DNA from: Candidatus Saccharimonadales bacterium
Lineage (GTDB): Bacteria; Patescibacteriota; Saccharimonadia; Saccharimonadales; SZUA-47
DNA length: 64,000 bases
Direction of reading: 5' to 3'
NCBI GenBank assembly: GCA_041737385.1
Contig: JBGSRU010000009.1
Location: 7,015 to 71,014 of the forward strand
Of this stretch, positions 822-53,104 are shown piece by piece. A program made the translations under genes and the position numbers. The notes beneath the pieces are model-generated. The model did not search any database and was not told the DNA's origin. It saw only the letters and a list, made by a program, of their open reading frames with translations. Within the stretch, counting starts at the first letter, position 1; the number at the start of each line of letters is the position of its first letter.

Positions 822-1099
822 TTCTCGTTGGAATGAGCTGGGTGAGACAATCCTTGAAATTGTTGCAAGCAGACTTTCTGAATCAAGCTAGCTTGATGTA
901 ATGAAATCTCGAGGTCGAGGAACATGACTGCAGAATGTGGGCGAGCCCCACTGGACTTTTTAAAATTACAGTATTCATGAGAAATTTTTCGAGTTTGAAG
1001 AAACAATAAGTTTGGAAGCGTCGTTATAATGATCGTAATAAGAACGATAACTCTTTTAAAATGAGCAAACAACTCTCCTAGTTGGTATACTTAGATGTA

Positions 1100-21434: not shown

Positions 21435-22958
21435 ATGGTCCTTATTATGGGTCCTGTTATTGCAGCAGCGTTAATTTCGCTAGGTGTTGGCTTTGGAGTT
21501 AGTAGCTACACAACAAAAAAGAAGCTCGGAAGTGCAGAGGAAGAGGCAAAAAAAGAGTTAGACAAAGCAAAAAAAGAATCAGCTAAACTTGTTGATGAGG
21601 CAAAAGAAGAAGCAAATAAGCTTGCTGAAGAAGCACGAAAAGAAGAGCAGCAACGACGCAACGAGTCAAAAGATATCGAAAGGCGGTTGATTGATCGTGA
21701 GACAAATCTTGATAAAAAGCTCGATGAGCTTGATAAACGTACAGAAAAATTACGTGCTGGTGAAGACGAAGTCGAAGCGCTGAAAAATGAGATTCGTGAT
21801 ATTCGTACCAAGCAACAAGATAAGCTAGAAAAGATAGCGAAGCTTACCAAAACTGATGCAGCTGACAAGCTCATGAAAATGACTGAGCGAGATATCAAAA
21901 ATGATCTAGAGGGCCTAGTCCACAAGTTACAAAATGAGGCAAAAGAGAACGCTGAAGAACTCGCAGGAACGATTCTCGTCACTGCTATGGAGCGAATGGC
22001 AAGCGAAGTGACTGCAGAACGAACAGTGTCTGCTTTGAAGCTTTCTGACGAAGAAATGAAAGGCCGCATAATTGGGAAAGAGGGGAGAAACATCCAAGCA
22101 ATCCAAAAAGCAACCGGCGTAGATATTATGGTTGATGACACGCCAGGAATGGTTGTTATAAGCTCATTTGATCCAATTAGGCGTGCGGTGGGTGTTAAAG
22201 TCATGGAAATGCTCATGAAAGATGGGCGTATTCATCCAGGTCGAATTGAAGAAGTTGTTGAAAAAGCACAAAAAGAAGTGCAAAAAGACGTTATGCGCGC
22301 TGGCGAAGATGCGGCTCGTGAAGTTGGTATCGTTGGGATTCCGAAAGAAGTGCTGCAACTTGTTGGGGAGTTAAAATTCCGCACAAGCTATGGCCAGAAC
22401 GTTTTGAAACATTCAACTGAAATGGCGCATATAGCTGGAATATTGGCTGAGCAGCTTGGCGCGGATGTAAAAGTAGCGAAATATGCTGCACTTATTCACG
22501 ACATGGGCAAAGCCTTGACGCACAAGATGGAAGGTAAACACCACCATATTAGTGGTGAAATGGCCCGTAAGTACGGCGTCCCTGAAGCAGTTGCTCTTGC
22601 AGCCGAACAACATCATGATGACGTTGAAGCAACATCCGTTGAAGCCTTGATTGTGCGTGTCGTTGATGCTATTTCGGCAGCGCGCCCGGGTGCGCGTAAT
22701 ATTTCAGCAGAAAACTTCTCAGAAAGGATGAAAGATCTAGAAAATACTGCACTTGGTTTCGACGGTGTCGAAAAAGTATACGCAATCAGTGCCGGTCGTG
22801 AAATTCGTGTATTTGTGAAGCCAACTAAGCTTGATGATCTTGGTGCTATCAAGCTTGCTCGAGACGTCGCCAATAAAATCGAATCAACTATGCAATACCC
22901 TGGAACGATCAAGGTGAATGTAATCAGAGAAACTAGAGCTATAGAATTTGCCAAGTAA
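21435..22958 (+). CDS. rny: Ribonuclease Y
   Basis: N-terminal TM helix, Lys/Glu coiled coil, KH domain (GRIIGKEGRNI) and HD domain (LIHDMGKA). Confidence 0.95.
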   Translation: MVLIMGPVIAAALISLGVGFGVSSYTTKKKLGSAEEEAKKELDKAKKESAKLVDEAKEEANKLAEEARKEEQQRRNESKDIERRLIDRETNLDKKLDELDKRTEKLRAGEDEVEALKNEIRDIRTKQQDKLEKIAKLTKTDAADKLMKMTERDIKNDLEGLVHKLQNEAKENAEELAGTILVTAMERMASEVTAERTVSALKLSDEEMKGRIIGKEGRNIQAIQKATGVDIMVDDTPGMVVISSFDPIRRAVGVKVMEMLMKDGRIHPGRIEEVVEKAQKEVQKDVMRAGEDAAREVGIVGIPKEVLQLVGELKFRTSYGQNVLKHSTEMAHIAGILAEQLGADVKVAKYAALIHDMGKALTHKMEGKHHHISGEMARKYGVPEAVALAAEQHHDDVEATSVEALIVRVVDAISAARPGARNISAENFSERMKDLENTALGFDGVEKVYAISAGREIRVFVKPTKLDDLGAIKLARDVANKIESTMQYPGTIKVNVIRETRAIEFAK

Positions 22959-23006
22959 ATTAGAGCTTCCTAATTTAAAGTTCTAGCGTCAATAGTTTCT
23001 GCAACA

Positions 23007-23049
23007 CCAACTAAAAAGACCACCTATAAAAAGTGGTCATTTTAGTTGG
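23007..23049 (+). terminator. 17-bp hairpin downstream of rny; part of repeat R1
   Basis: CCAACTAAAAAGACCAC..GTGGTCATTTTAGTTGG with one mismatch. It sits 49 nt after the rny stop. Confidence 0.4.
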
Positions 23050-23182
23050 TCGAGACCCACGCATTTTACTTGAATTGTTCAAATACATCTGTGAGAATCC
23101 TGAAAGTTCTAATAGGTTACTAGCTCGACTAAAACGAGAGCCTGTAAAAAGTACTGTCAAGATTGAGAACCTTGTATATTAG
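23033..23182 (+). CDS. 49-codon ORF inside R1 (possible small ribbon-helix-helix-like protein or conserved gene 3' end)
   Basis: GTG start. Compared with the R2 copy, nearly all differences are synonymous, including TTA/CTA and TTG/CTG Leu changes and six consecutive synonymous codons before different stop codons. Confidence 0.4.
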   Translation: MVILVGRDPRILLELFKYICENPESSNRLLARLKREPVKSTVKIENLVY

Positions 23183-23224
23183 CGATAAAGTGATATAATT
23201 TATACCAAAGATTGGAGTATTAAT

Positions 23225-23998
23225 GTGTCTACTTTGAGAATGTATGAAGCCGTTCGTGAAGAAGGTGCTGGTTTATGGGTTGGTGCAAACCAATATGGTC
23301 AGGAATTACCTAATGAAACAGAAGCTAATTTTATAGTACAAAAAACAGCCAAAGGTCTATGGCGAGTTGCTGTAAAGGGCTATAACGGAGGCAAGTTCTT
23401 TCCTACCTTAGTCAATACAAACGGTGAAGTTGCCGCACAAATAGGTGACCAGCATTACCCTGCAATGGACTCTCACCAAAGACTTATATCAGTTGATGAC
23501 GAAACTATGCAACTGTACGAAGAATCTTTAAGAGATACAGATGACAAAGATAGAGGATTGCTACTTAATGTTCTTGAAGGCGAAAAGCAAGGGCTATGGA
23601 GCTTGAGTGGTCCTGCCGAATATAACATTTATGAGGAGTTCGCTCAACTACTATATGGTGACGCAAGCCAAGTAGGACTTAGCTGGGGTGAATGGAGAGA
23701 ATGGGATGATAACAATCCTGACCAGTCTGGATACCACGTAAAAAAACCAGTTGCTGCCCAAGTAGTAGTAGATGGTCCTGAATTTCACGTTAGACCATAC
23801 GACCATAATGTTAGTGGTGTGACTGCGTCAGCGATTAAAGACAGGATTAAATACTTTCCTACAGCTACGAATCTAGTTAGAGACTTATCTGATGCTGATA
23901 CTATTGCTTTACGTTATATGAATGATGACTTTGCTTACGGCTCGCCAGCAGTAGAAACACAGAAAACTAATGTACTTGAAACAATTTACGGGAAGTAA
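23225..23998 (+). CDS. Hypothetical protein (257 aa, acidic, Trp/Tyr-rich)
   Basis: Long ORF with GTG start preceded by TTGGAG. I recognised no family. Confidence 0.5.
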   Translation: MSTLRMYEAVREEGAGLWVGANQYGQELPNETEANFIVQKTAKGLWRVAVKGYNGGKFFPTLVNTNGEVAAQIGDQHYPAMDSHQRLISVDDETMQLYEESLRDTDDKDRGLLLNVLEGEKQGLWSLSGPAEYNIYEEFAQLLYGDASQVGLSWGEWREWDDNNPDQSGYHVKKPVAAQVVVDGPEFHVRPYDHNVSGVTASAIKDRIKYFPTATNLVRDLSDADTIALRYMNDDFAYGSPAVETQKTNVLETIYGK

Positions 23999-24004
23999 CT
24001 TCAG

Positions 24005-24058
24005 TACGTCACACAATGACATTGTACGACATGCTCTAACAGGGATAGAGTGATTTAT
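24005..24058 (+). repeat. Direct repeat R3a (pairs with 26289-26343)
   Basis: TACGTCACACAATGACATTGTACGACATGCTCTAACAGGGATAGAGTGATTTAT versus a roughly 85 percent identical copy upstream of arsR. Confidence 0.7.
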
Positions 24059-24119
24059 GTCCTAGAGGACGTTCCTCTATAGGTGTAAAATCGTGTAACT
24101 TTGTATTTGAGAGGACTTG

Positions 24120-24204
24120 GTCACTTTCAGCGACCCCGAGATTTCATTGAATCAAATAAGTTTGATGAAGAAAGTCTCCTTCCGAAAGTCCACTGGACTT
24201 TCTC
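24120..24204 (-). repeat. Three-hairpin module, copy A (inserted in a tRNA-Pro-derived T arm)
   Basis: The minus strand reads GAGAAAGTCCAGTGGACTTTCGGAAGGAGAC...CGGGGTCGCTGAAAGTGAC. It is flanked by GAGAGGACTTG (24109-24119, identical to the tRNA-Pro T stem/loop) and ACCTCCAACC. Confidence 0.7.
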
Positions 24205-24255
24205 ACCTCCAACCTCTTCTCGGTCGGAGCTTCAAAGCCTCTCACGCCCAATGGT

Positions 24256-24431
24256 ACCAACTAAAAAGACCACTCGTGAAAGTGGTCATTTTAGTTGGTC
24301 GAGACCCACGCATTCTACTTGAACTGTTCAAATACATCTGTGAGAACCCTGAAAGTTCCGACAGGTTACTTGCTCGACTTAGACGTGAACCAAAACCTAG
24401 AATGGTCCAAATAGAAAATCTGGTGTACTAA
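24256..24431 (+). repeat. Direct repeat R2 (pairs with R1)
   Basis: Starts at the ACCA end of the degenerate tRNA-Pro 3' copy and includes the hairpin CCAACTAAAAAGACCAC..GTGGTCATTTTAGTTGG. Confidence 0.85.
24282..24431 (+). CDS. 49-codon ORF inside R2 (paralog of 23033-23182)
   Basis: It is in frame with the 104-aa track ORF 24117-24431, but only the last 49 codons are conserved with R1. Confidence 0.4.
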   Translation: MVILVGRDPRILLELFKYICENPESSDRLLARLRREPKPRMVQIENLVY

Positions 24432-24521
24432 TCTAGCGTGTTGACTTAAAACTGTCTTGTGTAAAGACTTCCTGATCCCTTTTTAGCGCATTAACAACAA
24501 TTTGGGCACATGTTTTGACTC

Positions 24522-25925
24522 CTATACGCAACAACTTAGTTTTGATATATCATTCTTGAACGAAAGAGCGGCGTACTTTATACCCTCAGATATGGTTGGG
24601 AACATTGGGATTGTATCTGTGACGTCATCAATTGTGTTTTTATTCTTAACAATCATCATAACCTCAGCAATCAGCTCACTTGCATGGGGTGCGACAATGG
24701 TCATGCCTTCAATAACTTCTGTCTTAGGATTAGCTGAAATGTTGAACAAGCCCTCGGTTTGCCTAGTTATGCCAGCTTTAGGTACTACTTCAAGCTGAAC
24801 TGTACGACACAAACACAGATTGTATCTACTCATCTGTTCTTCTTCGGTTAAACCAACACCTGCTAGTTGTGGGCTTGTGAATACAGCGAATGGAACAGTA
24901 TCATAATCTATTGAATTATTCTCGCTTTTAAGTGCGTTCAAGGTTGCAAGCGTTCCCTCACGACCAGCGGTCGTTTCTTGTCTTAGTGGAAGGTCAACGA
25001 CGTCCCCAACTGCAAATATATTCTTATTGTTGGTACTGTACGTGTTAGAAACCTTGATTGCTCCGTTTTTTGATAACTCAACGTTTGCCTTTTCGATGTT
25101 CATTTTGTCGGTATTAGGCGTTCTGCCAGAAGCAAGCAGTATCTCATCGACTACAAGTGTCTTTGATTCTTCGCCTACAGTGTAAGTTAGGTGTTTCTTC
25201 CCGTTCTTTGCCTCGACAGATTCAAGATTAGAACTGGTGATTATTTCGATACCTTCTTCTGATAGAATACCCTGTAGCCGAAATGCAGAACCTGTATCTA
25301 CTCTAGGCAGTATTCGTTCTGCTCGTTGCAAGATTGTAACTTTGCTTCCGAAACGAGAGAACATTTGTCCCCATTCCAATCCTTGTGCACCAGCACCAAC
25401 AACAGCTAATGACTTCGGTAGTTCTTTAAGCTCAACTGCATCAATGTGAGTTATATATCCAGCTTCTTCTAGCCCCTTTACGTCTGGTATCCGTGTTCGT
25501 GAGCCTGTTGCTATGATTATTTTTGGTGCTGTAAATGTTTCATTTTCAACAGCAACAGTTTTTTCGTTTTCAAAAGTGGCGTGCCCCTCAAGATAAGTTA
25601 CATGTTCAAGCTCGCCTAAGACGTCTTTATACTTCTTAGTTCGCATCTTCTCAACCATGGCTTGCTCATCAGCAATAACTTTGGCAAAATCAGCCTCTCT
25701 GACGTTAAACTCTAAACCAGGCACACCGTGATGTGTAGCATTGTGAACAAGTTCGGCTGCGTGAATAAGTGTTTTTGACGGGACACAGCCCACATTAACG
25801 CACGTACCGCCTAAAGGTAAGCCAGCATTGACCATCAAAGTCTTTGCTTTAAGTGTGTTGGCTTTAATGGCTGCAGAAAACGCTCCTGCACCGCCACCAA
25901 TAATAATAAGGTCGTATTGTTTCAT
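24522..25925 (-). CDS. merA: Mercuric reductase MerA (core enzyme, no N-terminal HMA domain)
   Basis: FAD motif IIIGGGAGAF, redox disulfide GGTCVNVGCVPSK and a C-terminal vicinal Cys pair (..KLSCCV). Confidence 0.8.
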   Translation of the reverse strand: MKQYDLIIIGGGAGAFSAAIKANTLKAKTLMVNAGLPLGGTCVNVGCVPSKTLIHAAELVHNATHHGVPGLEFNVREADFAKVIADEQAMVEKMRTKKYKDVLGELEHVTYLEGHATFENEKTVAVENETFTAPKIIIATGSRTRIPDVKGLEEAGYITHIDAVELKELPKSLAVVGAGAQGLEWGQMFSRFGSKVTILQRAERILPRVDTGSAFRLQGILSEEGIEIITSSNLESVEAKNGKKHLTYTVGEESKTLVVDEILLASGRTPNTDKMNIEKANVELSKNGAIKVSNTYSTNNKNIFAVGDVVDLPLRQETTAGREGTLATLNALKSENNSIDYDTVPFAVFTSPQLAGVGLTEEEQMSRYNLCLCRTVQLEVVPKAGITRQTEGLFNISANPKTEVIEGMTIVAPHASELIAEVMMIVKNKNTIDDVTDTIPMFPTISEGIKYAALSFKNDISKLSCCV

Positions 25926-25926
25926 T

Positions 25927-26247
25927 TTATGCTCCTAACATCTTAGCTACGTTTTGAAACTCTTTTTTATTGAGAGAGTAGAAGTTGTGCTTACCGTCCT
26001 TACGAACAGTCACAAGTTCCACATCTTTAAGACGAGCTAAACTATGTGAAGCATTGGAAATGCTTGTACCTACTAGTTCGGCTATGACTGTTACGTTAAG
26101 CTCGGGGTGGTGTCTGAGAAGGTAGCATATTTTTAATTTGGTCTGGTCACCAATGACACCGCATTGTCTGGCACATCTGTCGATTGCAACATTATCTACA
26201 AGTTCTTTTTTGATGTTATTGAGTTGAACGTTTGAACGCATATTCAA
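25927..26247 (-). CDS. ArsR/SmtB family metal-responsive transcriptional regulator
   Basis: Winged HTH (KLKICYLL...VTVIAELVGTSISNASHSLARLKDVELV). It sits 1 nt upstream of merA. Confidence 0.8.
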   Translation of the reverse strand: MNMRSNVQLNNIKKELVDNVAIDRCARQCGVIGDQTKLKICYLLRHHPELNVTVIAELVGTSISNASHSLARLKDVELVTVRKDGKHNFYSLNKKEFQNVAKMLGA

Positions 26248-26288
26248 ATGATACCATTACTTAAGCCCTGATTCAACAAGGCTTGTGC

Positions 26289-26343
26289 TACGTCGCACAA
26301 TCAACATTCTACGACATGCTCTAACAGGGGTAGAGCCATTTAT
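26289..26343 (+). repeat. Direct repeat R3b
   Basis: Copy of R3a. It overlaps the -10 and 5' UTR of the candidate arsR-merA promoter. Confidence 0.7.
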
Positions 26344-26366
26344 TTAGCGACTCGGGGCTTTGTCAA
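26338..26366 (-). promoter_or_regulatory. Candidate promoter of arsR-merA
   Basis: On the minus strand, TTGACA, a 17-nt spacer, then ATAAAT, about 90 nt upstream of the arsR start. Confidence 0.45.
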
Positions 26367-26444
26367 GTGCTAGTGTTGTTTTCGCCCACCCCTGTTAAAA
26401 AACCTACTACACCATAATAGGAATTTGCATACGTTTCATTAGGA

Positions 26445-27392
26445 TCAGACGTATATTCCTTGCTTAACTTTTATTGGGTCTAAAGGTTCGTTAGTAAACG
26501 GGTTAGTATAGCTGGTTAAGGGTGGTTCATCGGGTAAAGGAAACTTGCCAACCAGCCGAAATGGCTGTTTTGGCGGTGTTTCGTCACCTAGTTCTTCCCA
26601 TTCGCTTATCTTGCTAATTTCAATAGGCTCAAATACTATATCTTCCGATGACGTGAACGACTTGTCGCTTAGGTCATAAAAGCCACGAGCCATTTGCCCA
26701 ACAGCAGAACCTTTTCGCTTATTAGCCTTAACTACATACCTGTAAGTAAGGTCTACTATTATCGTGTCTCCACGTAGGTCAATTATTGGAACTTGTTCAA
26801 ATCTGTACTGGTATGAGCCTTCTTTGATAATGTCTATAGTATCGTCACTCCAATGGTCTCTAAATAATTCGTATATATTTCTTGGTGGCTCTGAGCCGTC
26901 AGATATTTTCATGTCCCATACTAGTGGCGAGAATCTAAAGTCTTGTCCTGTTTGTTCAAGACCATAAGAGATTGAATCAAGGTAAAATCCTTCCGCAATC
27001 ACTGGTGCTTTAATCATAAAGTTACTTGTATCTGCATGACCTTTATCTATTAGTACCACTGTCTTAATCTTGTAATGCTTGGCAGTTCGTAGGGCAGACT
27101 TAGTAAAGCCTGCATTTGAAATCATTATTCCGCTTTTTGCATTCTCATCCTTTAGCTTATTTGCAAATTGCTCAACCTTTGGCAGGTCTACTGGCTTTGA
27201 ATGATCCTTGCACTCAATATCAATGAAATCTTTGTCGCCAACCTTTATATCTATTTGTCTTGGAGCTTGGCTAATCACGCCAGTCACTTTTTGATTTGGT
27301 TTTACAATCTGATTACTAAAAACCTTGGAACTAGTCTGCATTGCACTTTCTTCAAAGCTTTTCCATTTAGGTTTCTTGGTGTTATCAGGCAT
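26445..27392 (-). CDS. Mrr-like restriction endonuclease domain protein (PD-(D/E)xK) with uncharacterised C-terminal domain
   Basis: N-terminal WKSFE...IDIKV...IDIECKDH...GIMISNAGFTKSA matches the Mrr_cat pattern. The C-terminal ~170 aa is unassigned. Confidence 0.6.
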   Translation of the reverse strand: MPDNTKKPKWKSFEESAMQTSSKVFSNQIVKPNQKVTGVISQAPRQIDIKVGDKDFIDIECKDHSKPVDLPKVEQFANKLKDENAKSGIMISNAGFTKSALRTAKHYKIKTVVLIDKGHADTSNFMIKAPVIAEGFYLDSISYGLEQTGQDFRFSPLVWDMKISDGSEPPRNIYELFRDHWSDDTIDIIKEGSYQYRFEQVPIIDLRGDTIIVDLTYRYVVKANKRKGSAVGQMARGFYDLSDKSFTSSEDIVFEPIEISKISEWEELGDETPPKQPFRLVGKFPLPDEPPLTSYTNPFTNEPLDPIKVKQGIYV

Positions 27393-27413
27393 TTACATAT
27401 CCTCAAGGATTAT

Positions 27414-27806
27414 CTATAAACTCGCAAGCACAATCGCTTCTTTAATCTCTTTTTCAATGCTATCGCCATATTTCTCAAGTTCTTCTAAAGTAACCCAAGA
27501 AAACTCTTGGTGCTCATCACTTAATACCACGTCATTGGTATTGGTGTCGCAAAGAAAGAACAATGCAACTATATGCTTAAGTTCACCTTCTGGTTTTGCG
27601 AACCACTCGTCAACGTGAATAACCTTACCTACAACTAAATCTGTAATACCAGTTTCCTCACTAGCTTCTCGGCGTAGACCGTCTTCCAGCTTTTCACCTT
27701 TTTCAAGTCTTCCGCCGACTGCTTGCCATCTTTCACCTTCACGAACAATAAGAAACTTTCCATCTTGATTTTTAATTACTGCTTTTACGGCTACTTGTGT
27801 ATCCAT
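27414..27806 (-). CDS. NUDIX hydrolase
   Basis: Nudix box GGRLEKGEKLEDGLRREASEETGI. Confidence 0.85.
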   Translation of the reverse strand: MDTQVAVKAVIKNQDGKFLIVREGERWQAVGGRLEKGEKLEDGLRREASEETGITDLVVGKVIHVDEWFAKPEGELKHIVALFFLCDTNTNDVVLSDEHQEFSWVTLEELEKYGDSIEKEIKEAIVLASL

Positions 27807-28612
27807 TATTGTTTCTGCTCCATTGTTAAATAAGTGTTTCGAATAGCTTCAATTAGATCGTTATCTAGCTCATTACTCCTAGCCATTTCTGATAGTAGAG
27901 CTAGGTCTTTTTTGGGTACTTGGCTTGGCTTGAATGCTATATTGGCTGTCATCATCTCCGCTAAGTCTTCTTTCCATACTTGTCCAAAATTATCTAATGA
28001 TTGCTCGCTCATGAAATCGTAAACAGCAGGTATATTTGCACCATACTTACTTAGTAGCCTGTGGGCTTCTACTCCGACTGCTAGGTTTGCATATCTAGCA
28101 AGGTTAAATGTGAGCTTTGCGAGTGTAGCAGAAGGAATATCTCCCATATATCGTGTACTACCCATAGCCTCAAACACTTCTTTATTATCTTCAAATGCTT
28201 TTTTTGAACCCTCAACTAAAAACTCAATTGTTCCACTAGTTGCATGGTTCTTGCCACCAATCATAGGTGAACTTAAAAATTGTTTGCCTTTAGACTCAAA
28301 TATACTCGCAAACTCTTTAGCTATTTCAGGTGTTAATGTACTTGTCTCAATAATCGTCACGATGTTGTTGTTTTCGGCGAGTAATTCTTCAATAACTGTT
28401 CGAGAAGCATCTGGATTAGGTAAACAGAGTATGACAACTTCACTAACATTAGCAATGTCGGTAACACTATTCGCCTTTTGAATACCAAATTGTTGAAGCT
28501 TAGTTGTTTGTTCATTATCAGTATCGAAGCCTATTAAGCTAAAGTCCTTAGAAAGTATGTTTTTCGCCATACCACTTCCCATGTTTCCTAGACCTACAAA
28601 ACCAATTTTCAT
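27806..28612 (-). CDS. NAD(P)-dependent oxidoreductase (3-hydroxyisobutyrate/6-phosphogluconate dehydrogenase-like)
   Basis: MKIGFVGLGNMGSGMAKN Rossmann start. ATG 28612 is preferred over the 30-codon upstream extension in the track. Confidence 0.75.
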   Translation of the reverse strand: MKIGFVGLGNMGSGMAKNILSKDFSLIGFDTDNEQTTKLQQFGIQKANSVTDIANVSEVVILCLPNPDASRTVIEELLAENNNIVTIIETSTLTPEIAKEFASIFESKGKQFLSSPMIGGKNHATSGTIEFLVEGSKKAFEDNKEVFEAMGSTRYMGDIPSATLAKLTFNLARYANLAVGVEAHRLLSKYGANIPAVYDFMSEQSLDNFGQVWKEDLAEMMTANIAFKPSQVPKKDLALLSEMARSNELDNDLIEAIRNTYLTMEQKQ

Positions 28613-28876
28613 AACTACATAATAACAGGGCAAAATTGGAATAGCCACACAATACCTCAACATATACCTTAAAGCTTGTCCAGTGCTCTTAGGATGCTTC
28701 ACAGAGCAACTTTTAACTAAGGGTTCTTGTTCATCTTTTGCATTGTACGAATACCGAGCGACTGCTCACGATTTTTTTTCTTAGATTTTCTACCCTCAAC
28801 GCCATTTATTCACGCAACAATACTATTATTATCTGACAGTGGTTTTCTTAAAAACTCAGTAAACGTATGAGAGTTC

Positions 28877-29107
28877 TTAGGCAATTGTCCAGAAATTCAT
28901 CGTAACTTTGGTTTGGTTTTCTTTGGCGGTAGTTATTCTTTCGGCGAATACCTGATTGTTCTTCAGATAGTAATAAAAACTACTCCTCGAAATCCCTGCA
29001 AAGCGACAACTGTCGGTAATGTTGGTGTTATGGGATATTGCGTCAGCCAAGATAATGACTGTACGCATAGTTATAATTTGTGGTCTTCCTACTGATTTCT
29101 TAATCAT
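28877..29107 (-). CDS. Small helix-turn-helix protein (candidate element regulator or directionality factor)
   Basis: 76 aa. ITDSCRFAGISRSSFYYYLK is a resolvase/transposase-type HTH. Confidence 0.45.
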   Translation of the reverse strand: MIKKSVGRPQIITMRTVIILADAISHNTNITDSCRFAGISRSSFYYYLKNNQVFAERITTAKENQTKVTMNFWTIA

Positions 29108-29192
29108 TAAACTCCTTTTGTTTTGATATGTATCTATTTTAATTATCTCATTTACACTATTTTGGGTAGGTAACCTATAATATTAAATAATT

Positions 29193-30041
29193 ATGGGTAC
29201 TCCAAAACCGAAGAAAGCTAACGACTATGCAGTAGCAAAAGCACTGAACGAGGTGGTCTATAGTATATTGGTCTTTGTATATGCGGGATGGGGTACTGAT
29301 CTATATAAAGAACATGAAATTGCGGAGATTAACCGCACATACATTCTGATAACGCACGAATTAGAAAAAATATACGCACGTAACCCCGAATTACTTGCAA
29401 TAAAGCCCGATCCGATTTGGAGACTTTTTGAAGTACTGAAAAACACCACGGAGACTATAGCCGACCACTTTAGTGATTCCGACGACCATGGTGCAGAGCA
29501 TACAGTAAGGGTAGAAAAGTTATGTATCCTTGCTGGTGTAGATGAGCCAAGTTATACACCAGAGCAACAGAAATTGGTGGATAATTCTAAAGTGGCAATT
29601 AGTAATTATGCTGCGTTGGTCAAGAAGGAAGGCGAGAAATTGTTAGCAGTAAAAAAAGAATACGGCTGGGAGATGATGAATTACTATCTGACTTACAAAC
29701 CAGACGGCACAATCTTGATAAACGACGTATTGAAACTTAAGAAAGTTCATGCAGGATCCATCACGGAAAAGTTGCTAGAACAATCCATAAAGAATCCTAA
29801 TACTAAATTCAAGCCAGAACTCGGAAAGACAGCGAGAAATATCAGCACAATAGTTAGTAGTGCTGGCTTTACGCCTGTTCTAAGGGATTTGTTTTTCCCA
29901 ACTGTTAGTGGTGACACCGTCGTATTCCGTCCATTTGTATCTAAATTACAGGCAGATACAGAACGCATAGATAGAGATGAACTAGATTTGCAGCTCAGAG
30001 AAAACGGTGCTATCTGCAGAGTAGTATTTGAACCAAAGTGA
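29193..30041 (+). CDS. Hypothetical protein (282 aa) within the island
   Basis: Long ORF in which I recognised no family. Confidence 0.45.
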   Translation: MGTPKPKKANDYAVAKALNEVVYSILVFVYAGWGTDLYKEHEIAEINRTYILITHELEKIYARNPELLAIKPDPIWRLFEVLKNTTETIADHFSDSDDHGAEHTVRVEKLCILAGVDEPSYTPEQQKLVDNSKVAISNYAALVKKEGEKLLAVKKEYGWEMMNYYLTYKPDGTILINDVLKLKKVHAGSITEKLLEQSIKNPNTKFKPELGKTARNISTIVSSAGFTPVLRDLFFPTVSGDTVVFRPFVSKLQADTERIDRDELDLQLRENGAICRVVFEPK

Positions 30042-30182
30042 ACCGAAAAGAACCATATGAAACGACATCAAACTGATACAGCGACTTAAAGATATATAAG
30101 TTCTTTAATGGTGATAGGACGAATAATCCGAGTTCACCTAACTATAATCGTCTTGTTAGGAGGGCTCGAATACGGAGCCGAT

Positions 30183-30368
30183 ATGTCATTAAGTAATGAG
30201 CAAGAAAATAAGAATGTTACCAGTCAAGAAACTAACAGCATAAGCGATACAAGAATAAACCTAGCTGCCGTTGTCATTGGGCTAGAAAAAACTAGAGCCA
30301 CAATACAAGATTTAACAGATAACGAACTGTATGTATTCGATTTGCACGGGAACAAAGTATTACTATAA
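30183..30368 (+). CDS. Small hypothetical protein
   Basis: An internal ATG with a GGAG-like RBS is preferred over the 30108 start. Support is weak. Confidence 0.25.
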   Translation: MSLSNEQENKNVTSQETNSISDTRINLAAVVIGLEKTRATIQDLTDNELYVFDLHGNKVLL

Positions 30369-30420
30369 ATATTTAGCAAGAGTCTACACGAACTATTGAA
30401 TCAGTCTATAATACGACTAA

Positions 30421-32085
30421 ATGAATGATGATATAGCAACAACCAAACAATTATTACAGATGATGCAGACCTTGTATCCTAATCAGGATCCAAGAGATAT
30501 TGACCCAACAACTTTGCGATATGTCATATATGCTAGAAAATCTACTAGAAGTGAAGAACGACAAGAACGAAGTATACCTGACCAGATTGCAGACTGTTAT
30601 CTCAGAGAGGTAGACCTATACGGGTTAACCGTTATTGGTAAGCCAATCCGTGAGAAGCAAAGTGCAAAAGAACCAGATATACGACCTAAGTTTCGACAGA
30701 TGATTGATGACATAAAAGCTGGTAAGTATGACGGTATCATCGCATGGCACCCTGATAGGCTTGCAAGGAATATGAAAGAGGCAGGAGAGATAATTGACCT
30801 ACTGGACAAGGGCATTCTTAAAGACATACGCTTCGCTACAAGTAGCTTTGAAAACAGCCCAACAGGTAAGATGTTACTCGGCATATCTTTTGTTCTATCT
30901 AAACAGTATTCAGAGCACTTGAGTGAAAGCGTAACAAGAGGTAATAGACGTAAGACAGAAGGTGGTGTGTTCTTCGCTGATATGAAGCACGGTTACTACA
31001 TAGGGGACGGTAAGCTGTTTCCTGACGGCAATAACTTCATACTTATTAGACAAGCATTTGAGAAACGTCTTGAGGGTTGGGGTCAGAAAGAAATAGCTAA
31101 CTGGCTAAATACTCAAGGCTATATGATTAGAAAAAAGAACAAAAAGCCCCAAACATTCAAGTGGGACAAGGACAATATTAGTAAGCTATTTCGTGATACG
31201 ACTAATGCTGGAGTTCTTAAATACGGTCAGACATTCACTGACCTGACAGACTTTTATGATTTTGAAGCTGTTGTATCTGTTGAAGAGTTTCTTAAAATCA
31301 ACAAGGTCAAAGACTTGTCTGATCCTAAGCTAATGTCATCAATCTTGGTCAAGTCTAGAGAAGCCACGAAAGCAAATCTGTTAAGGGGTATGGTGTATTG
31401 TGGTTTTTGCGGTAAATCTTTTAGCTCTGGAATAACTGTCAAAAAAGACAAAGAAACTAGAAAGATACTCACTAGTCGTTACTTTTACCGATGTGAAAAC
31501 GAAGAATGTGAATTTAAGAATAAAAGTGTCAGAGCAAAAACTGTAATAGAGGTTGCAATCAAGTTCCTGTCTGAGCACCTGTACACGACTAAAGATAACT
31601 ATGATAGATATGTCTCTGACGCTAAAGAGTACGCTTCTACACAAGCCAAAGCTCTTGATGGCGACATTGCCAGCTTAGCTCGACAAATAGGCAATAAGAA
31701 AGCCGAGTACAGTCGCACAAAAGAGATTATCAGAGACAAGCCAGCTCTTGCCAAGCACTACAACTTAGATGAGATTGAAGCTGAGCTAAAAGCCATTACT
31801 ACTGACCACGACAAGCTTGCTAAGAGCCGTAAAGACCTCAAGCAATCGGTTTTGGAATATTCTGAATATCTCGAACTTTTTGAAAACATAGGTGTTATTT
31901 TAACAAAAACGCATGATATGGGGTTATTAGACGAGAACATCAAAAAGTTCTTCTTGAACTTTTCTGTGAAGCAATGGGGACTAGGTAAAAAACAGAGGTC
32001 AGAAGTTACCTTCAACTTAAATGAACCCTTCGCAGGGTTCATAAAATCGAACAATTTCGTTCATGGTCGGGGTGAGAGGACTTGA
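30421..32085 (+). CDS. Large serine recombinase (integrase)
   Basis: Resolvase catalytic domain (YVIYARKSTRSEERQERSIPDQ, DGIIAWHPDRLARN), recombinase domain, zinc ribbon (CGFCGK...CENEEC) and a coiled coil. The last 22 nt overlap the 3' end of tRNA-Pro. Confidence 0.9.
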   Translation: MNDDIATTKQLLQMMQTLYPNQDPRDIDPTTLRYVIYARKSTRSEERQERSIPDQIADCYLREVDLYGLTVIGKPIREKQSAKEPDIRPKFRQMIDDIKAGKYDGIIAWHPDRLARNMKEAGEIIDLLDKGILKDIRFATSSFENSPTGKMLLGISFVLSKQYSEHLSESVTRGNRRKTEGGVFFADMKHGYYIGDGKLFPDGNNFILIRQAFEKRLEGWGQKEIANWLNTQGYMIRKKNKKPQTFKWDKDNISKLFRDTTNAGVLKYGQTFTDLTDFYDFEAVVSVEEFLKINKVKDLSDPKLMSSILVKSREATKANLLRGMVYCGFCGKSFSSGITVKKDKETRKILTSRYFYRCENEECEFKNKSVRAKTVIEVAIKFLSEHLYTTKDNYDRYVSDAKEYASTQAKALDGDIASLARQIGNKKAEYSRTKEIIRDKPALAKHYNLDEIEAELKAITTDHDKLAKSRKDLKQSVLEYSEYLELFENIGVILTKTHDMGLLDENIKKFFLNFSVKQWGLGKKQRSEVTFNLNEPFAGFIKSNNFVHGRGERT

Positions 32086-32140
32086 ACCTCCGACCTCGCG
32101 GTCCCAAACCGCGCACTCTAGCCAACTGAGCTACACCCCG
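32064..32140 (-). tRNA. tRNA-Pro (anticodon UGG), CCA encoded
   Basis: CGGGGTG-TA-GCTC-AGTTGGCTA-GAGT-G-CGCGG-TTTGGGA-CCGCG-AGGTC-GGAGG-TTCAAGT-CCTCT-CACCCCG-A-CCA. A TATAAT box lies at 32154-32159. Confidence 0.92.
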
Positions 32141-32188
32141 ATGATGTATATGTATTATAACTTATAAAGGTTCAAATCTGAGGACTTG

Positions 32189-32275
32189 GTCACGTACCGC
32201 GACCCCGTCGCCACTTCTTTGAAAACAAGTTTACAAGAGTGAACTCCCTTGCGAAGTGCGCAATCGGCACTTCTC
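32189..32275 (-). repeat. Three-hairpin module, copy B
   Basis: The minus strand reads GAGAAGTGCCGATTGCGCACTTCGCAAGGGAG...CGGGGTCGCGGTACGTGAC, flanked by a tRNA 5' fragment and CAAGTCCTCA. Confidence 0.7.
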
Positions 32276-32302
32276 ACTCTAGCCAACTGAGCTACACTCT
32301 GG
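32276..32302 (-). pseudogene. tRNA 5' fragment (acceptor plus D arm only)
   Basis: CCAGAGTGTAGCTCAGTTGGCTAGAGT. Its 21-nt D-arm region is identical to tRNA-Pro, the acceptor strand differs, and there is no anticodon arm. Confidence 0.7.
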
Positions 32303-32435
32303 AATCAGCGTGTGATGATTCGGTTGCTGTTCCGCTCACAAAACAAGTTTGATGAACGAATCAAGCAACCGAATTAAGCCACTGATTCTTCAAATTCGAA
32401 AACCCTCTCTCAAATTTGGTTTAGCTACGAATATC
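32303..32435 (-). repeat. Conserved structured region, copy 1 (pairs with 46887-47020)
   Basis: Shared blocks are CGTGTGATGATT, GCC..GATTC and AGCTAC.AATA. The 11-bp stems covary, and the terminal hairpin at 32391-32418 pairs fully only on the minus strand (two G-T pairs). Confidence 0.6.
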
Positions 32436-32492
32436 TTCGGAATTTACTTCGGTAATTATAACGCAGTTAGAAGTCTTTTTCCAGTGGTATAA

Positions 32493-35362: not shown

Positions 35363-35436
35363 TACCCCGGGAGGGAATCGAACCCCCGACCTGTGGGATA
35401 GAAGCCCATTGCTCTAATCCGCTGAGCTACCGGGGC
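35360..35436 (-). tRNA. tRNA-Arg (anticodon UCU), CCA encoded
   Basis: GCCCCGG-TA-GCTC-AGCGGATTA-GAGC-A-ATGGG-CTTCTAT-CCCAC-AGGTC-GGGGG-TTCGATT-CCCTC-CCGGGGT-A-CCA. A TATAAT box lies at 35452-35457. Confidence 0.9.
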
Positions 35437-35480
35437 GAGTACCAGATAAGTATTATAACAGGGGTTCGATCCAGAATCGA

Positions 35481-35566: not shown

Positions 35567-35620
35567 ACCCCGACCTGTGGGATAGAAGCCCATTGCTCTA
35601 ATCCGCTGAGCTACCGGGGC
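35567..35620 (-). pseudogene. Truncated second copy of tRNA-Arg(UCU), positions 1-54 only
   Basis: It is 100 percent identical to 35383-35436, and the identity continues through the 10-nt upstream flank. It ends at the T-loop where module C2 begins, with no matching 3' acceptor strand downstream. Confidence 0.75.
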
Positions 35621-35645
35621 GAGTACCAAATCGCTTAAAATCAAT

Positions 35646-46759: not shown

Positions 46760-46868
46760 TTAATTTGAATGATATAGTAATGTGCTACTTGTAACTATAG
46801 CTTGCGGTAACTTTTGGTTAGAGCACCGGTGCTTGTAGTTATCTTGTCTTGGCATAGAATACCTCGGG

Positions 46869-46886
46869 CAGCTGAGCTACTGGCCC
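46869..46886 (-). pseudogene. 18-nt duplicate of the tRNA-Lys 5' end
   Basis: GGGCCAGTAGCTCAGCTG is identical to 46742-46759. A sense-on-plus GGTTAGAGCACC piece within the palindrome AGCACCGGTGCT lies nearby. Confidence 0.65.
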
Positions 46887-49189: not shown

Positions 49190-50449
49190 TTATGTAGGTA
49201 GTGCGAGCACAGCTTCCTGAAAGAGGCTTCCTTTTTCCTCGAAGCTTGACCAGATAACGGTACTTGGTGCTGCTGTTGAAAGTAAACAAATGCTGCCGCT
49301 CGGCGTATGCTCAGCTGCCCACTCGACCGCAGTTTTCATATCTTTGGTTTCGAATAACTCGGGCGTATAGTTCGACGGTAACATCTCTTTTATCATCATT
49401 CCTGTGTCTGGAAACAGTACAAGCTTTGGAACTGCTAAAACCGAAAGAAGCTTTACGAGTTCAGTAAAGTCGTAGTGCCTATCATTGCCGCCTAGAAACA
49501 CACATCCAACTGGCCCTCTATTGCGAACGAGTGCCTGAATACCTGCAATGGTAGCTTCTGGGGTGGAGCCTATAGCGTCGTCAACGTAGGTGATACCCTT
49601 TACTTTTTTAACGGGTTGCAAGCGATGTCTAACTGGTTCAAAATTCTCCATTGATGTACGTGCTGTCATATGGTCTATGCCAAAAAGTTCGCAGACTTTC
49701 TGCACCATTAGATAATTCAGTTTGTTATGGTCGCCAATAAGCTTTGCTTTGGACATATCGACAGCTTCATTGGGGTCAATTGGTAGAGATCTTGCTTTGC
49801 TTGCAGCAAGCCAATGTAATAATATTTCAGTGTCTGGGTTGTACACCACAGTTCCGCTCTCATCCATGAACCGCATGATGTTTCGCTTTGCTTCCCAGTA
49901 AGATTCTAGGTTGCCGTGATAGTCAGTATGATCTCGGTAGAGATTTGTGATAATTGCGACATTCGGGCTTTGGCTGAGTTCGGCAAGTTGATAGCTTGAA
50001 AGCTCAACAATAAATACGGTGTTTTCATTTGCGCCATCGAGCGCTTCTAGCATCGGATGACCGACATTGCCACACAACCTCGCATCTAAACCACTATTTT
50101 TAAGCGTTGCTGCGAGCAGGCTTGACGTTGTTGTTTTGCCTTTTGTCCCCGTTATTCCAACAGTTTTACTGCGAAGTTGGTTGGCACAGTCAAAAAACAC
50201 TCTTGTAGGCGTTGTGTATGGTACGGACATAAGCCGTCCCGGGCAACCAGGAGTTTTGACAATGATAGTTTGCGTTAGATCAAGTTCTTTTAAGCTTTCT
50301 AGATACTGTGGATCGTCTTTTTCGTCTACAAACTTAAAAGAGCTGATATTCCCATAAGTTTCTATAAAATTCTGAAAACTTACTCCTTCTTTCCCTCGGC
50401 CAACGAATACGACTGCTTTATTAAAAAAATCTGGCAACTCATAATTCAT
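49190..50449 (-). CDS. murD: UDP-N-acetylmuramoyl-L-alanine--glutamate ligase (MurD family)
   Basis: GITGTKGKTTTSSLLA P-loop, CGNVGHP, and a MurD-type N-terminal Rossmann domain. Confidence 0.85.
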   Translation of the reverse strand: MNYELPDFFNKAVVFVGRGKEGVSFQNFIETYGNISSFKFVDEKDDPQYLESLKELDLTQTIIVKTPGCPGRLMSVPYTTPTRVFFDCANQLRSKTVGITGTKGKTTTSSLLAATLKNSGLDARLCGNVGHPMLEALDGANENTVFIVELSSYQLAELSQSPNVAIITNLYRDHTDYHGNLESYWEAKRNIMRFMDESGTVVYNPDTEILLHWLAASKARSLPIDPNEAVDMSKAKLIGDHNKLNYLMVQKVCELFGIDHMTARTSMENFEPVRHRLQPVKKVKGITYVDDAIGSTPEATIAGIQALVRNRGPVGCVFLGGNDRHYDFTELVKLLSVLAVPKLVLFPDTGMMIKEMLPSNYTPELFETKDMKTAVEWAAEHTPSGSICLLSTAAPSTVIWSSFEEKGSLFQEAVLALPT

Positions 50450-51801
50450 GCTAACTTCTCCTTGAGTTTTTCAATCACTTTGTTTTTAAGTTCAGGAGGG
50501 AGTGCATCTTCTGCAGCGATTTCAAGCGCTGCAGCAAGCGGAGCTTGAAAATTCCCAAGTAGCAACTGTTCAATTTTTGCTGTCTGCATCATTGCACTGT
50601 TTATCGAACGGTCCTGACTTGCGAGTAATGACAGGCTAACGCGTAGTTCGTCTGGTGTTCCCACGCAATCTAAGACAGGTGTGTCGCCGCGACCGAGCAA
50701 GTTTAAGAATAACTCTTCCAGCTCTTTTTTGTTAAGAAAGTCTTGACCGAAAGTTTTCTCAAGTGCTTCGTCACTCAACCATGGTGCGAGTAAAATATAA
50801 CTACTTAGTGATTTGGGGCTATCATCGCTCCATCTTGGGTGAGAGCGTTCCTGCTGTGTAATCTTAAACAGAGAGTTGTCACTCGTAAACACTTCGAAAT
50901 ACTGCGGGTAGCCTGCAAAAATCTTAGCTACGGCAACGGAAGTTAATGGTCGAATAATACTGGTGTAAGTGAGCGTTGGTGAGATATATGTATGGACATA
51001 CGACTGGAATAGCTTTTCAAACTCAAGTGATTTACTCCACTGATGATTTACTGAAGCCCCTTCATGAGTGGCGTGTGGAATGCTAGCGCTCGCCTCGTTT
51101 GCAACGATAACGTACTTTGATGCTTCACTGCAGGCCAAAAGGCTCCCGATAAGTGCGAAGACGAGTGATATCGGAACGTGACCGTTATAGGCACCTTTGA
51201 TTGTGTTTAGCGTCAAAATCTGTTGATCAAGCTGCCGTTCCACCCCGAGTAAAGCAATTCCCATAGTGTCGGCCACAGCTTGAGATTGGCCTCGATTTTC
51301 TCCAGTTGCTAGCACAAATCCGGTTGTTTCTATCGCTAATTCTTTTAGTAGCTCTCCGGCTACAATTGAATCTTTGCCTCCACCAATACCGAGCAGTGCT
51401 TTTTCTTGCCACTGTATATCGTCTTCTTTTTCAGGGTTTACGGTTCCTTCTTGAGCACTGAAAGTAGCTAGTGAATCTCTTGATAGTTTATTTTTGTAGA
51501 GAAACTCACCGAGTCCATTTGAAAAAACTGTATTCCAGAATGTTGCCTCCTCGGCGTCCATACTATAGGCGTGATTTATCTCAGGCGGTATAAATGTCTT
51601 GTAGTAACTAATTCCTAGTGCAATATGGAGCGCGCGTAGCAAACGATCGACTGTATGGCTCTGCGGTAGTGCTACAGGCAGAGTTAGCGTTTCACAGAGG
51701 CTATAAGTCTCATTATCAGTGACAATACTATAATCAAAGCTTACTTTTTGAAGATTTTCATCGACACGCACATTCTCATAAATAAATTGTTTTCCACTCA
51801 T
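50446..51801 (-). CDS. PP-loop (SGGxDS-like) ATP pyrophosphatase superfamily protein, translationally coupled to murD; candidate MurL-type partner
   Basis: GIGGGKDS motif in a 451-aa protein. Its stop overlaps the murD start (ATGA). Confidence 0.5.
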   Translation of the reverse strand: MSGKQFIYENVRVDENLQKVSFDYSIVTDNETYSLCETLTLPVALPQSHTVDRLLRALHIALGISYYKTFIPPEINHAYSMDAEEATFWNTVFSNGLGEFLYKNKLSRDSLATFSAQEGTVNPEKEDDIQWQEKALLGIGGGKDSIVAGELLKELAIETTGFVLATGENRGQSQAVADTMGIALLGVERQLDQQILTLNTIKGAYNGHVPISLVFALIGSLLACSEASKYVIVANEASASIPHATHEGASVNHQWSKSLEFEKLFQSYVHTYISPTLTYTSIIRPLTSVAVAKIFAGYPQYFEVFTSDNSLFKITQQERSHPRWSDDSPKSLSSYILLAPWLSDEALEKTFGQDFLNKKELEELFLNLLGRGDTPVLDCVGTPDELRVSLSLLASQDRSINSAMMQTAKIEQLLLGNFQAPLAAALEIAAEDALPPELKNKVIEKLKEKLA

Positions 51802-51826
51802 GCTTTTAAGTATACGGCAAACACCT

Positions 51827-52195
51827 CTAAGAGTTTAAGTGTTCTTTTACCATTTCAGCTACTTGTCTCGGCGTCATGTTGGCTTTTAGGATGAATGCTT
51901 CAACGTTTAGCTCTTTAATGATGTCTGGAGCTTCGCTTTCGCCCATATTAGTCAGTACGATTACTTTGATATCTTTACCCCAAGTGGTTGCACGTAACTT
52001 CTGAAGCATTTCATCGCCATTCATCTCTGGCATCATGAGATCGAGTAAGACAATATCTGGCTTCATTTCCTCTATAAGCGCAAGTCCAAGTTTGCCGTTT
52101 TCTGATGTTTCGACTTCGTAACCCTCTGCTTCGAACTTGATTCGATACATTTGGCTGATAGCAGCATCATCTTCAATAATGGCAACTTTACTCAT
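51827..52195 (-). CDS. Stand-alone response regulator receiver domain (CheY-like)
   Basis: DD..D (DLMMPEMNG)..T..K pattern, 122 aa. Confidence 0.85.
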   Translation of the reverse strand: MSKVAIIEDDAAISQMYRIKFEAEGYEVETSENGKLGLALIEEMKPDIVLLDLMMPEMNGDEMLQKLRATTWGKDIKVIVLTNMGESEAPDIIKELNVEAFILKANMTPRQVAEMVKEHLNS

Positions 52196-52340
52196 GATGA
52201 TAATTCCTTTAACTTATAATTTTAAGAGTCCATATCTTATAATACTTCCTCATAGAATAAATTACAAAATACAAACGTTTATGTTTGCTAATATTTAAAT
52301 ATTATGTTATTTTATATAAAATAATAAAAAAGAGAACATT

Positions 52341-52976: not shown

Positions 52977-53104
52977 AGTTGGTTCATTTTAGTGATAGAG
53001 CAGTAAAGGTTACTAGACAAATACATATGATAAGATAACAAGTGGAATTAAATCCAAACTAAAAATGTATTTTCTTGGTATCATATACTTCAAGTGTATA
53101 AAAT

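Follow-up and report, generated by a model that had tools for sequence, protein, structure and literature searches.

What part of the sequence around a tRNA-Pro gene in a Saccharibacteria genome belongs to an integrated element, and what part is there independently of it? The question is raised by a 64,000-nt stretch of DNA from a Candidatus Saccharimonadales bacterium (GenBank assembly GCA_041737385.1, contig JBGSRU010000009.1, positions 7,015 to 71,014; hereafter, the window). The original prediction, made from the sequence alone, recognised here an element of some 8 kb (24109-32302 of the window), bracketed by two structured modules, A and B, and carrying a large serine recombinase (LSR) gene that ends inside the tRNA. 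All sequence features then described are present where they were placed. The prediction nevertheless merged two unrelated things: an intact LSR island with accessory cargo, integrated at the 3′ end of tRNA-Pro and here called I1, and a family of small modules, here called M, of which A and B are two copies. We estimate the probability that the region is a composite of these two independent systems at roughly 0.7. The source genome belongs to Saccharibacteria (TM7, Saccharimonadales), and the locus is syntenic with those of relatives; loci and contigs used for comparison carry L numbers and homologous proteins P numbers.

Island I1 is flanked by a direct repeat of the hexamer TGGTCG, the reverse complement of CGACCA, the last six bases of tRNA-Pro. 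The left core (attL) lies at 24296-24301, and the right core (attR, 32064-32069) is part of the functional tRNA-Pro(UGG) gene (32064-32140, minus strand; 65.4 bits in Rfam). The same 6-bp core occurs in L082, L083, L231 and L232. In a junction alignment, the left end is conserved as TGGTCG|AGACCCACGCATTCTACTTGAAC.. at window position 24296, at L082:2025 and at L083:4533, where both core and flank are the same, and the right end is conserved as ..AATTTCGTTnn|TGGTCGGGG.. The island therefore measures 7,768 bp (24302-32069, one core copy counted), the integrated element running from 24296/24302 to 32063/32069, so that the wider limits first drawn are wrong. A 152-nt repeat (23030-23181 and 24279-24430, 82% identical), which comprises terminator, core and LSR 3′ exon, had pointed to the left end. 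Short-read contigs of the source sample, SRR28170464, break exactly at both copies of this repeat: L229 ends at about window position 23059 and L001 starts at 24285.

I1 parts tRNA-Pro from its own terminator. This palindromic, bidirectional terminator (24260-24295, stem 24268-24287 on both strands) is found with a displaced CTCGACCA at 24260-24303, at the far end of the island, while tRNA-Pro itself is intact. The uninterrupted arrangement is seen in L004 and L007, where nothing separates the tRNA from the equivalent terminator. The comparison with relatives lacking the island, proposed along with the original prediction, could be made with these two, which are different species: L007 is fully syntenic, with RNase Y, a module-A unit, tRNA-Pro on the minus strand and the same membrane-protein gene, without the island and without module B. 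The compositional check proposed at the same time gave only a mild signal: the GC content of the island is 39.3%, compared with 42.05% for the rest of the window, and its 4-mer deviation, about 1.65 standard deviations over the mean, ranks 8th among 113 windows.

The recombinase gene as integrated (30421-32085, plus strand) encodes 554 amino acids, with the catalytic motif YARKSTRSEERQERS near residue 41. Its product has a serine catalytic domain (PF00239 resolvase, E 4.5e-20) and, in a C-terminal extension of more than 300 amino acids, the Recombinase (PF07508, E 1.5e-12) and zinc-ribbon (PF13408, E 4.3e-6) domains. In NCBIfam it is weakly similar to CcrB and XisF, and a sequence search of the PDB returned no match at E ≤ 1e-3. 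At least 1,558 homologues were found at E ≤ 1e-20; in those at 91, 76 and 71% identity, the open reading frame (ORF) likewise converges on tRNA-Pro(tgg) and overlaps its 3′ end. In the window, the gene shares 22 nt with tRNA-Pro, as originally noted. The end of the gene (32062-32085; seven sense codons and the stop, ..HGRGERT*) overlaps the antisense strand of the tRNA, and the last four sense codons (GERT) are tRNA sequence outside the shared core.

The natural 3′ end of the gene is at the other end of the island. A detached LSR 3′ exon (24297-24431, plus strand; 44 codons and a stop) continues, once the island is circular, the reading frame of the LSR body across attP: in the frame dictated by the core, which is the frame in which the LSR gene crosses the core at the other junction, the left end of I1 encodes GRDPRILLELFKYICENPESSDRLLARLRREPKPRMVQIENLVY*. 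L082 and L083 keep the exon peptide at their left ends, and it is also kept in a second copy in the window, which belongs to a decayed island, I2, described below. In the close comparisons, codon changes in the exon are mostly synonymous (synonymous to non-synonymous, 8:1 when compared with L082 and 4:1 with the I2 copy). Exon and LSR body are contiguous in the database proteins P0003 (592 aa) and P0042 (593 aa). The latter is encoded on two contigs of 5,667 nt (L232 and L233) from different samples, each with a terminal overlap of 30 nt, and the two are exact circular permutations of one another over 5,637 nt. They therefore represent a closed circle of 5,637 bp, in which attP (..TGGTCG..) lies inside the LSR gene. 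The circle carries genes for the full-length LSR, a DUF5681 and a DUF3761 protein, and neither a tRNA nor a copy of M was found in it. Among the 120 best homologues, 63 have the tRNA-Pro-encoded tail GRG(E/D)RT and two span attP, while most others listed end in GRG followed by a stop. Many LSR sequences in the database, among them P0008, P0072, P0078, P0087, P0100 and P0103, have 15-60 extra C-terminal residues (..GRGERTRTFDLTVPNRARYQLRHTP..), which are the antisense strand of tRNA-Pro translated through; annotated lengths in this LSR family are, therefore, unreliable.

Because attP is inside the gene, integration exchanges its last 44 codons for four that the tRNA encodes (..HGR|GERT*). Excision would restore an LSR of 598 amino acids, reconstructed as ..HGR|DPRILLELFKY...NLVY*. 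We propose that the LSR integrates a circular element of ~7.8 kb by crossover in the TGGTCG core of tRNA-Pro(UGG); the predicted attP junction of the excised island would read ..AATTTCGTTCATGGTCGAGACCCACGC.. / AATTTCGTTCATGGTCGAGACCCACGCATTC, and the empty attB ..TTTTAGTTGGTCGGGGTGAGAGG.. / CATTTTAGTTGGTCGGGGTGAGAGGAC. From the layout of the gene, we infer that the swap of C-termini may be a built-in switch between the integrated and the excised state. No account of a split LSR gene was found in the literature.

The island is otherwise ordinary in kind. With the LSR-borne islands and prophages (phiC31, Bxb1, A118-type, Ccr of the staphylococcal cassette chromosome SCCmec, XisF) it shares the three domains, the serine motif, a short core and site-specific integration with accessory cargo, as well as the circular form seen in relatives of I1. 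Two traits set it apart from the usual LSR elements: attP falls within the recombinase ORF, and the target is the extreme 3′ end of a tRNA gene, a kind of target generally ascribed to tyrosine integrases (PMC4383910). The uncommon twist is the split recombinase gene. The closest parallel is the integration-dependent gene truncation of mycobacteriophages: Broussard et al. 2013 reportedly described an attP inside a gene, where the integrated and the free forms have different C-termini. The change of C-terminus is the same, and the island exon is under purifying selection. In the mycobacteriophages, the gene affected is that of the repressor, and the integrase is a tyrosine enzyme; here it is the serine recombinase gene itself that is affected.

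What, then, are the modules? An alignment of the window copies defines M as a unit of ~95 nt with three hairpins (P1-P3) and the conserved linkers GGUGAGAA, YGCAAGG and CGGGG. A covariance model found exactly six copies in the window (E 1e-23 to 1e-29; next match, E 0.5), which excludes chance as the source of the features originally noted, and 13 further copies in eight of 80 RNase-Y loci of other Saccharibacteria. Over these 19 copies from nine genomes, pairing is kept in 95.3% of the pair cells, and at 29 of 32 pairs both sides have changed. The covariation score reaches 0.743; shuffles score 0.23, and slid partners no more than 0.155. A G.U pair common to 18/18 copies occurs on the tRNA strand only. 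The units in which M is embedded fold with z-scores from -4.6 to -8. Rfam returned only tRNA matches on the window, with no M family, and nothing credible at E ≤ 10 over a stretch with two M copies; nor did we find an account of M in the literature.

The two copies beside tRNA-Pro illustrate two layouts. On the far side of the island, GAGAGGACTTG (24109-24119, minus strand) is the reverse complement of nt 56-66 of tRNA-Pro and forms the 3′ flank of module A, truncated by I2. It adjoins M copy A (24120-24206, minus strand; model match 24110-24215, 108.6 bits, E 8e-29), with its three hairpins. Beyond this copy lie pseudo-tRNA-Pro nt 46-53 (24207-24214) and a 7-nt loop (24215-24221), both on the minus strand, and an inverted, degenerate antisense copy of the 3′ part of tRNA-Pro, ending in ACCA at 24259 (24222-24259, plus strand). 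The hairpin reported earlier, CTCCAACC (24207-24214), TCTTCTC and GGTCGGAG (24222-24229), is formed by these parts. Upstream of tRNA-Pro and likewise on the minus strand, the promoter region of the gene (32141-32189; TATAAT is the reverse complement of 32154-32159) includes a splint, the inverted T-arm half GGTTCAAATCT (32170-32180), and pseudo-tRNA-Pro nt 56-63 (32181-32189). These are followed by M copy B (32190-32277; model match 32179-32286, 96.3 bits, E 2.4e-25) and, as had been seen, by a fused tRNA 5′ fragment. This 23-nt exact copy (32275-32297 = 32114-32136; 100% identity) reaches to about nt 26, which places M where the D stem meets the anticodon stem. The unit begins with a structured leader and its own promoter GTTATAAT (32298-32462; promoter, reverse complement of 32455-32462; fold z-score -5.05), both kept in the homologous B units of L003 and L004. 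The same architecture at tRNA-Arg(tct) and tRNA-Lys(ctt), noted from the start, was found again.

These layouts recur widely. Metagenome contigs scanned with a degenerate M pattern gave at least 120 loci; M was confirmed by profile search in 109 of the 120 that were fetched. In viral contigs, 24 matches to an M pattern were obtained, of which none was a real M. In all, 128 of 170 M copies lie within 400 nt of a predicted tRNA, 125 of these 128 on the strand of the tRNA, and 28 isoacceptors are represented. Downstream, A units (57 cases) consist of the tRNA to its CCA, a palindromic terminator, antisense nt 76-46, a loop of 3-7 nt, nt 46-54, M, nt 55-76 to CCA, and a terminator; the antisense arm is ~77% complementary and best kept opposite nt 46-58. 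Upstream, B units (66 cases) consist of a promoter of their own, pseudo-tRNA nt 1-54, M, nt 55-61, the splint, a TATAAT-like promoter and the intact tRNA. The splint is a short antisense of approximately nt 61-50 that closes a stem around M, and the pseudo-tRNA nt 1-54 is, by inspection, usually at least 95% identical to the real gene. At several tRNA-Gln loci and at tRNA-Arg of the window, the outer pieces, nt 1-54 and nt 55-76, are one tRNA split between T54 and T55, with an intact tRNA gene inside the insertion.

M is inserted at fixed, G-rich positions of tRNA sequence. Its main site is between T54 and T55 of the T-loop; M also occupies the D-loop, the vicinity of position 26, the anticodon loop and the site after position 7, always after a G. 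A single pseudo-tRNA may hold two or three copies, and M is repeatedly found within a second M, inserted at the CGGG|P3 junction, a site similar to the T-arm target. On either side of M the tRNA numbering runs on, with the replacement of 0-4 nt and no duplication. Plain tandem chromosomal duplication as the origin of A and B units was rejected: beyond the tRNA, the sequences are as a rule unrelated (mean identity 0.37-0.41), apart from a few recent cases. In RNase-Y-anchored loci, which were retrieved without reference to M, 10% of the tRNAs have an A-type scaffold, and the presence of M is patchy among relatives.

Several observations bear on the variety of these units. At tRNA-Arg(tct), 35384-35447 and 35568-35631 are a 64-nt duplication (98% identical) comprising nt 1-53 of the tRNA and 11 nt of leader; the upstream duplicate scores 30.6 bits with the Rfam tRNA model and could be mistaken for a gene in annotation. 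The upstream side of tRNA-Lys (46760-46886) holds nt 1-18 as a pseudo 5′ fragment, ~55 nt of a module unrelated to M, and the D-arm copied in antisense orientation, and similar D-loop-type units occur in L122, L143, L175, L197 and L214. Downstream A-type scaffolds with another module (..CACGCGCAGG..GAGCATG..) in the place of M were found in L064, L214, L149, L137 and L031, which suggests that several module families share one scaffold layout. In L056 (15749-16039), two near-identical A units form a tandem pair with a period of 184 nt, the size expected of nt 55-76, terminator, antisense copy, nt 46-54 and M together; L209 and L155 carry arrays in which A units alternate with small gene cassettes. 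One M copy in the window (833-938, plus strand) is an orphan with no nearby tRNA. It is followed by GCAGAATGTGGGC, resembling what is left of P3 in an outer M, and by a U-tract-bearing hairpin similar to a T arm, and appears to be a nested, decayed unit.

The only link found between M and the LSR islands is the landing site that pseudo-tRNA halves provide. The 3′ halves in A units keep CGACCA and are, therefore, valid LSR landing sites. Such a landing is shown by I2, a decayed second island directly to the left of module A, and is suggested by the cassette arrays of L209 and L155. A second palindromic, bidirectional terminator with a displaced pseudo-tRNA-Pro 3′ end and the attL of I2 (23010-23052; TGGTCG core, 23047-23052) is near-identical to 24260-24301 and, by eye, resembles the terminator after the pseudo-tRNA of L007. 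As a whole, 23006-23182 is a copy of the series ACCA, terminator, TGGTCG and LSR 3′ exon. The I2 remnant (23053-24108, plus strand) comprises the exon copy (23048-23182; GRDPRILLELFKYICENPESSNRLL...NLVY*, with four synonymous and one non-synonymous codon changes relative to I1), ORF257 (23225-23998), without a family match, and a 40-mer (24019-24058) that is 90% identical to the arsR-proximal intergenic sequence of I1 (26304-26343). This 40-nt repeat holds a palindrome, CTCTA..TAGAG, and TAGAAT on the minus strand, and is probably the arsR-merA promoter/operator, retained in I2. The I2 segment stops exactly at the break in the pseudo-tRNA of module A, after nt 66, the LSR-proximal half having been deleted together with everything in the pseudo-tRNA from nt 67. 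Most simply read, this means that an earlier island of this family entered the CGACCA of a pseudo-tRNA-Pro 3′ half and later lost its recombinase half.

Since modules flank I1 on both sides in the window, they and the inverted tRNA fragment could be taken for elaborate att-site arms of a single ~8-kb element (24109-32302). We consider this highly improbable. The conserved ends of I1 are inside the modules, at the TGGTCG core; related LSR islands (L082-L084) and circular or attP-spanning forms (L231-L233) lack M; the same units occur at the island-free tRNA-Arg and tRNA-Lys genes of the window, in L004, L007, L056 and L058 and at island-free tRNAs of many other genomes; and LSR-like genes are near M at only two of ~110 M loci. 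The modules thus do not belong to the island, although the accompanying remark that structured, inverted tRNA-derived sequences are foreign to serine-integrase att-site biology has proved sound. We regard M as a probable mobile module, beside which no protein is encoded. At another locus, the closest relative of a given M copy is at a different tRNA species in 87% of cases, with a mean identity of 0.865 compared with 0.70 overall; clustering by tRNA species, as under vertical inheritance, was seen in only 13% (6.5% by chance) and was rejected. In L209, near-identical scaffolds contain very different M copies. The variety of sites that M occupies in tRNA sequence, its multiple and nested copies and its uneven occurrence among relatives also speak for mobility. 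We propose that M is non-autonomous and moved by a factor encoded elsewhere, possibly as a folded single-stranded nucleic acid, that it would be tolerated only in truncated, redundant tRNA copies flanking the intact gene, and that it may travel with, or create, small cassettes that replace the interrupted tRNA. The further step, that M and its sibling modules are a new bacterial class of mobile elements homing to the T- and D-loops of tRNAs, the halves left behind serving as LSR landing pads, is a tentative one, which we would rather doubt than assert; M might then act as folded single-stranded DNA or RNA, possibly catalytic or as a guide, and the cassettes would carry the replacement tRNA.

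Several points weigh against the scheme of a mobile island and a mobile module. For I1 itself, look-ups of exact proteins (the LSR, RNase Y, MgtC and the flanking membrane-protein gene) for strains with an empty site gave only contigs of the same sample, SRR28170464. When the ORFs within 4 kb of M at ~110 loci were clustered, no recurrent recombinase, transposase, reverse transcriptase or other partner emerged, and the recurrent families were the housekeeping neighbours of tRNA genes (FtsX/MacB, histidine kinase, FAD oxidase, MurA-like, MetK). Neither a target-site duplication nor a terminal inverted repeat nor an empty and filled pair of close strains was seen for M; simple transposition does not explain the regular antisense splint at every M; and a structural constraint common to the copies could inflate the nearest-neighbour figure. 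The strong structural conservation of M also fits a host RNA gene. On that account, M would be a family of host non-coding RNAs, with tRNA-like flanks and splint serving processing, stability or regulation of the adjoining tRNA; the strong covariation, the strand-specific G.U pair, the promoters of B units, the terminators of A units, the fold z-scores and the lack of a nearby transposase all agree with it. We nevertheless think it unlikely, since A units have no promoter of their own and stand behind the terminator of the tRNA, nesting disrupts the P3 hairpin of the outer M, at least five different positions of the tRNA frame are occupied, A-type scaffolds are restricted to a tenth of the tRNAs in RNase-Y loci with a patchy presence among relatives, and the nearest relatives of M are at other tRNA species. 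Changes in the antisense pieces (73 of G.U type and 45 of A.C type, with 131 transversions) show only a weak bias, which does not speak strongly for or against retention as an RNA duplex. No more probable, in our estimation, is that A and B units were left behind as scars by tiny integrative cassettes of another class, or serve as their recombination sites, in which a folded single-stranded att site mimics a tRNA gene and M is the recognition element. An inverted copy, a spacer and a direct copy are the geometry expected after folded-hairpin integration, of the kind known for integron attC and CTX-phage attP; one L-M-R-splint unit, circularly permuted, gives both A and B units; the tandem A units of L056 and the arrays of L209 and L155 agree with it; and the loops of M (a C-G-closed GNA triloop and CTTG) are of the kind usual in stable single-stranded DNA mini-hairpins. 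Yet no integron- or Xer-type recombinase was linked to M, the antisense arm is only ~77% complementary, with transversions making up most of its mismatches, no free circular form was found, and M nested in M needs no scaffold. Finally, M might be an intron-like sequence removed from tRNA transcripts, in the manner of archaeal non-canonical introns or of the group I introns that occur in tRNA genes of Patescibacteria (PMC13011429); its several positions, with up to three copies per tRNA frame, recall archaeal multi-intron tRNAs (PMC4090602). We give this very little credence, as all M-bearing tRNA copies examined are truncated and stand beside an intact gene, and ~95 nt is far too small for a group I or group II intron, for which there was no Rfam ribozyme match either.

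M as a mobile module also differs from every known system with which we compared it. A miniature inverted-repeat transposable element was rejected, for the ends of M (5′ TGAGAA ... GTGAC 3′) are not inverted repeats and its flanks are without duplication; a group I or II intron, for want of an Rfam ribozyme core, for size and for the truncated host tRNA copies; and an integron attC, for its three distinct hairpins and the absence of an IntI context, cassette-like arrays being confined to L209 and L155. Transfer-messenger RNA and its permuted form, Y-RNA-like RNA, T-box, hammerhead and other small ribozymes, bridge RNA and TIGR arrays were dropped on size, Rfam and context. Elements that move as single-strand hairpins (the palindrome-associated elements, PATEs, of IS200/IS605; repetitive extragenic palindromes, REP, and their mosaic elements, BIME, with RAYT transposases; attC) are, like M, small, strand-specific and variable in their stems, without target duplication, and insert beside a short G-rich motif. 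In hairpins, strand specificity and lack of duplication, M fits an IS200/IS605 PATE, but no transposase was found in the neighbourhoods of M. Unlike the single-strand elements, M has three different hairpins and conserved linkers, with no HUH transposase or integron integrase found nearby, is exclusive to tRNA-derived sequence, and comes at each copy with a partial duplicate of a tRNA gene. Archaeal tRNA-intron transposition and tRNA disruption (PMC4090602, PMC3293823) likewise place short related sequences at several non-canonical positions of many tRNAs and leave tRNA fragments beside intact genes; the differences are the bacterial host, the truncated pseudo-genes and the three-hairpin fold with its splint, no splicing endonuclease context being seen. 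I1 and the decayed I2 in tandem at one tRNA, and the small-cassette arrays of L209 and L155, resemble the tandem accretion and the remnants, akin to cis-mobilisable elements, known from streptococcal integrative and conjugative or mobilisable elements (PMC5704250) and from the tycheposons of Prochlorococcus (10.1101/2020.12.28.424599). Unlike in those accretion systems, the second attB here is a pre-existing, M-bearing pseudo-tRNA half and not an att site of the first island.

The cargo of I1 largely agrees with the first description. Family matches support merA (24522-25925; MerA equivalog, 508 bits against a cut-off of 454), arsR (25927-26247; ArsR/SmtB), an Mrr-like nuclease gene (26445-27392; Mrr_cat), a NUDIX gene (27414-27806) and a NAD-binding dehydrogenase gene (27806-28702; NAD_binding_2), all on the minus strand, in addition to the LSR; the ORF described as a small HTH protein (28877-29107, minus strand) has no family match. 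Two further ORFs are on the plus strand (29193-30041 and 30108-30368).

RNase Y (21435-22958) has its best identities, 85-87%, in a comparison with 80 species-representative metagenome-assembled genomes, nearly all labelled Saccharibacteria. Most relatives have tRNA-Pro(tgg) within 1-3 kb after RNase Y and co-directional with it, while in the window, L004, L007, L009, L024 and L030 it is oriented toward RNase Y. The YmdB gene, usually found between the two (L082, L084), is missing from the window, all six tRNA genes of which are on the minus strand. The most compositionally deviant stretch of the window is 50000-58000 (GC 0.31-0.37, top five 4-mer distances), which may be another horizontally acquired segment.

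To our knowledge, the genomes of Saccharibacteria and other members of the candidate phyla radiation are tiny, with every tRNA gene in single copy, and their mobile elements are poorly known. A large LSR family in Saccharibacteria is dedicated to the 3′ end of tRNA-Pro and delivers cargo such as mercury resistance. A recombinase gene that its own integration interrupts and excision makes whole again could determine directionality with no further factor; if this is true, an LSR gene spanning its own attP would be a previously unrecognised switch for the directionality of recombination or for expression, a design that is relevant to LSRs as tools for genome engineering. The regular, M-bearing pseudo-halves around tRNA genes explain assembly breaks at tRNA loci. 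M itself is a distinct, widespread and structured family of modules, apparently undescribed; should it move without encoding a protein, or act as a functional RNA linked to tRNA genes, it would be a new object for RNA and mobile-element biology.

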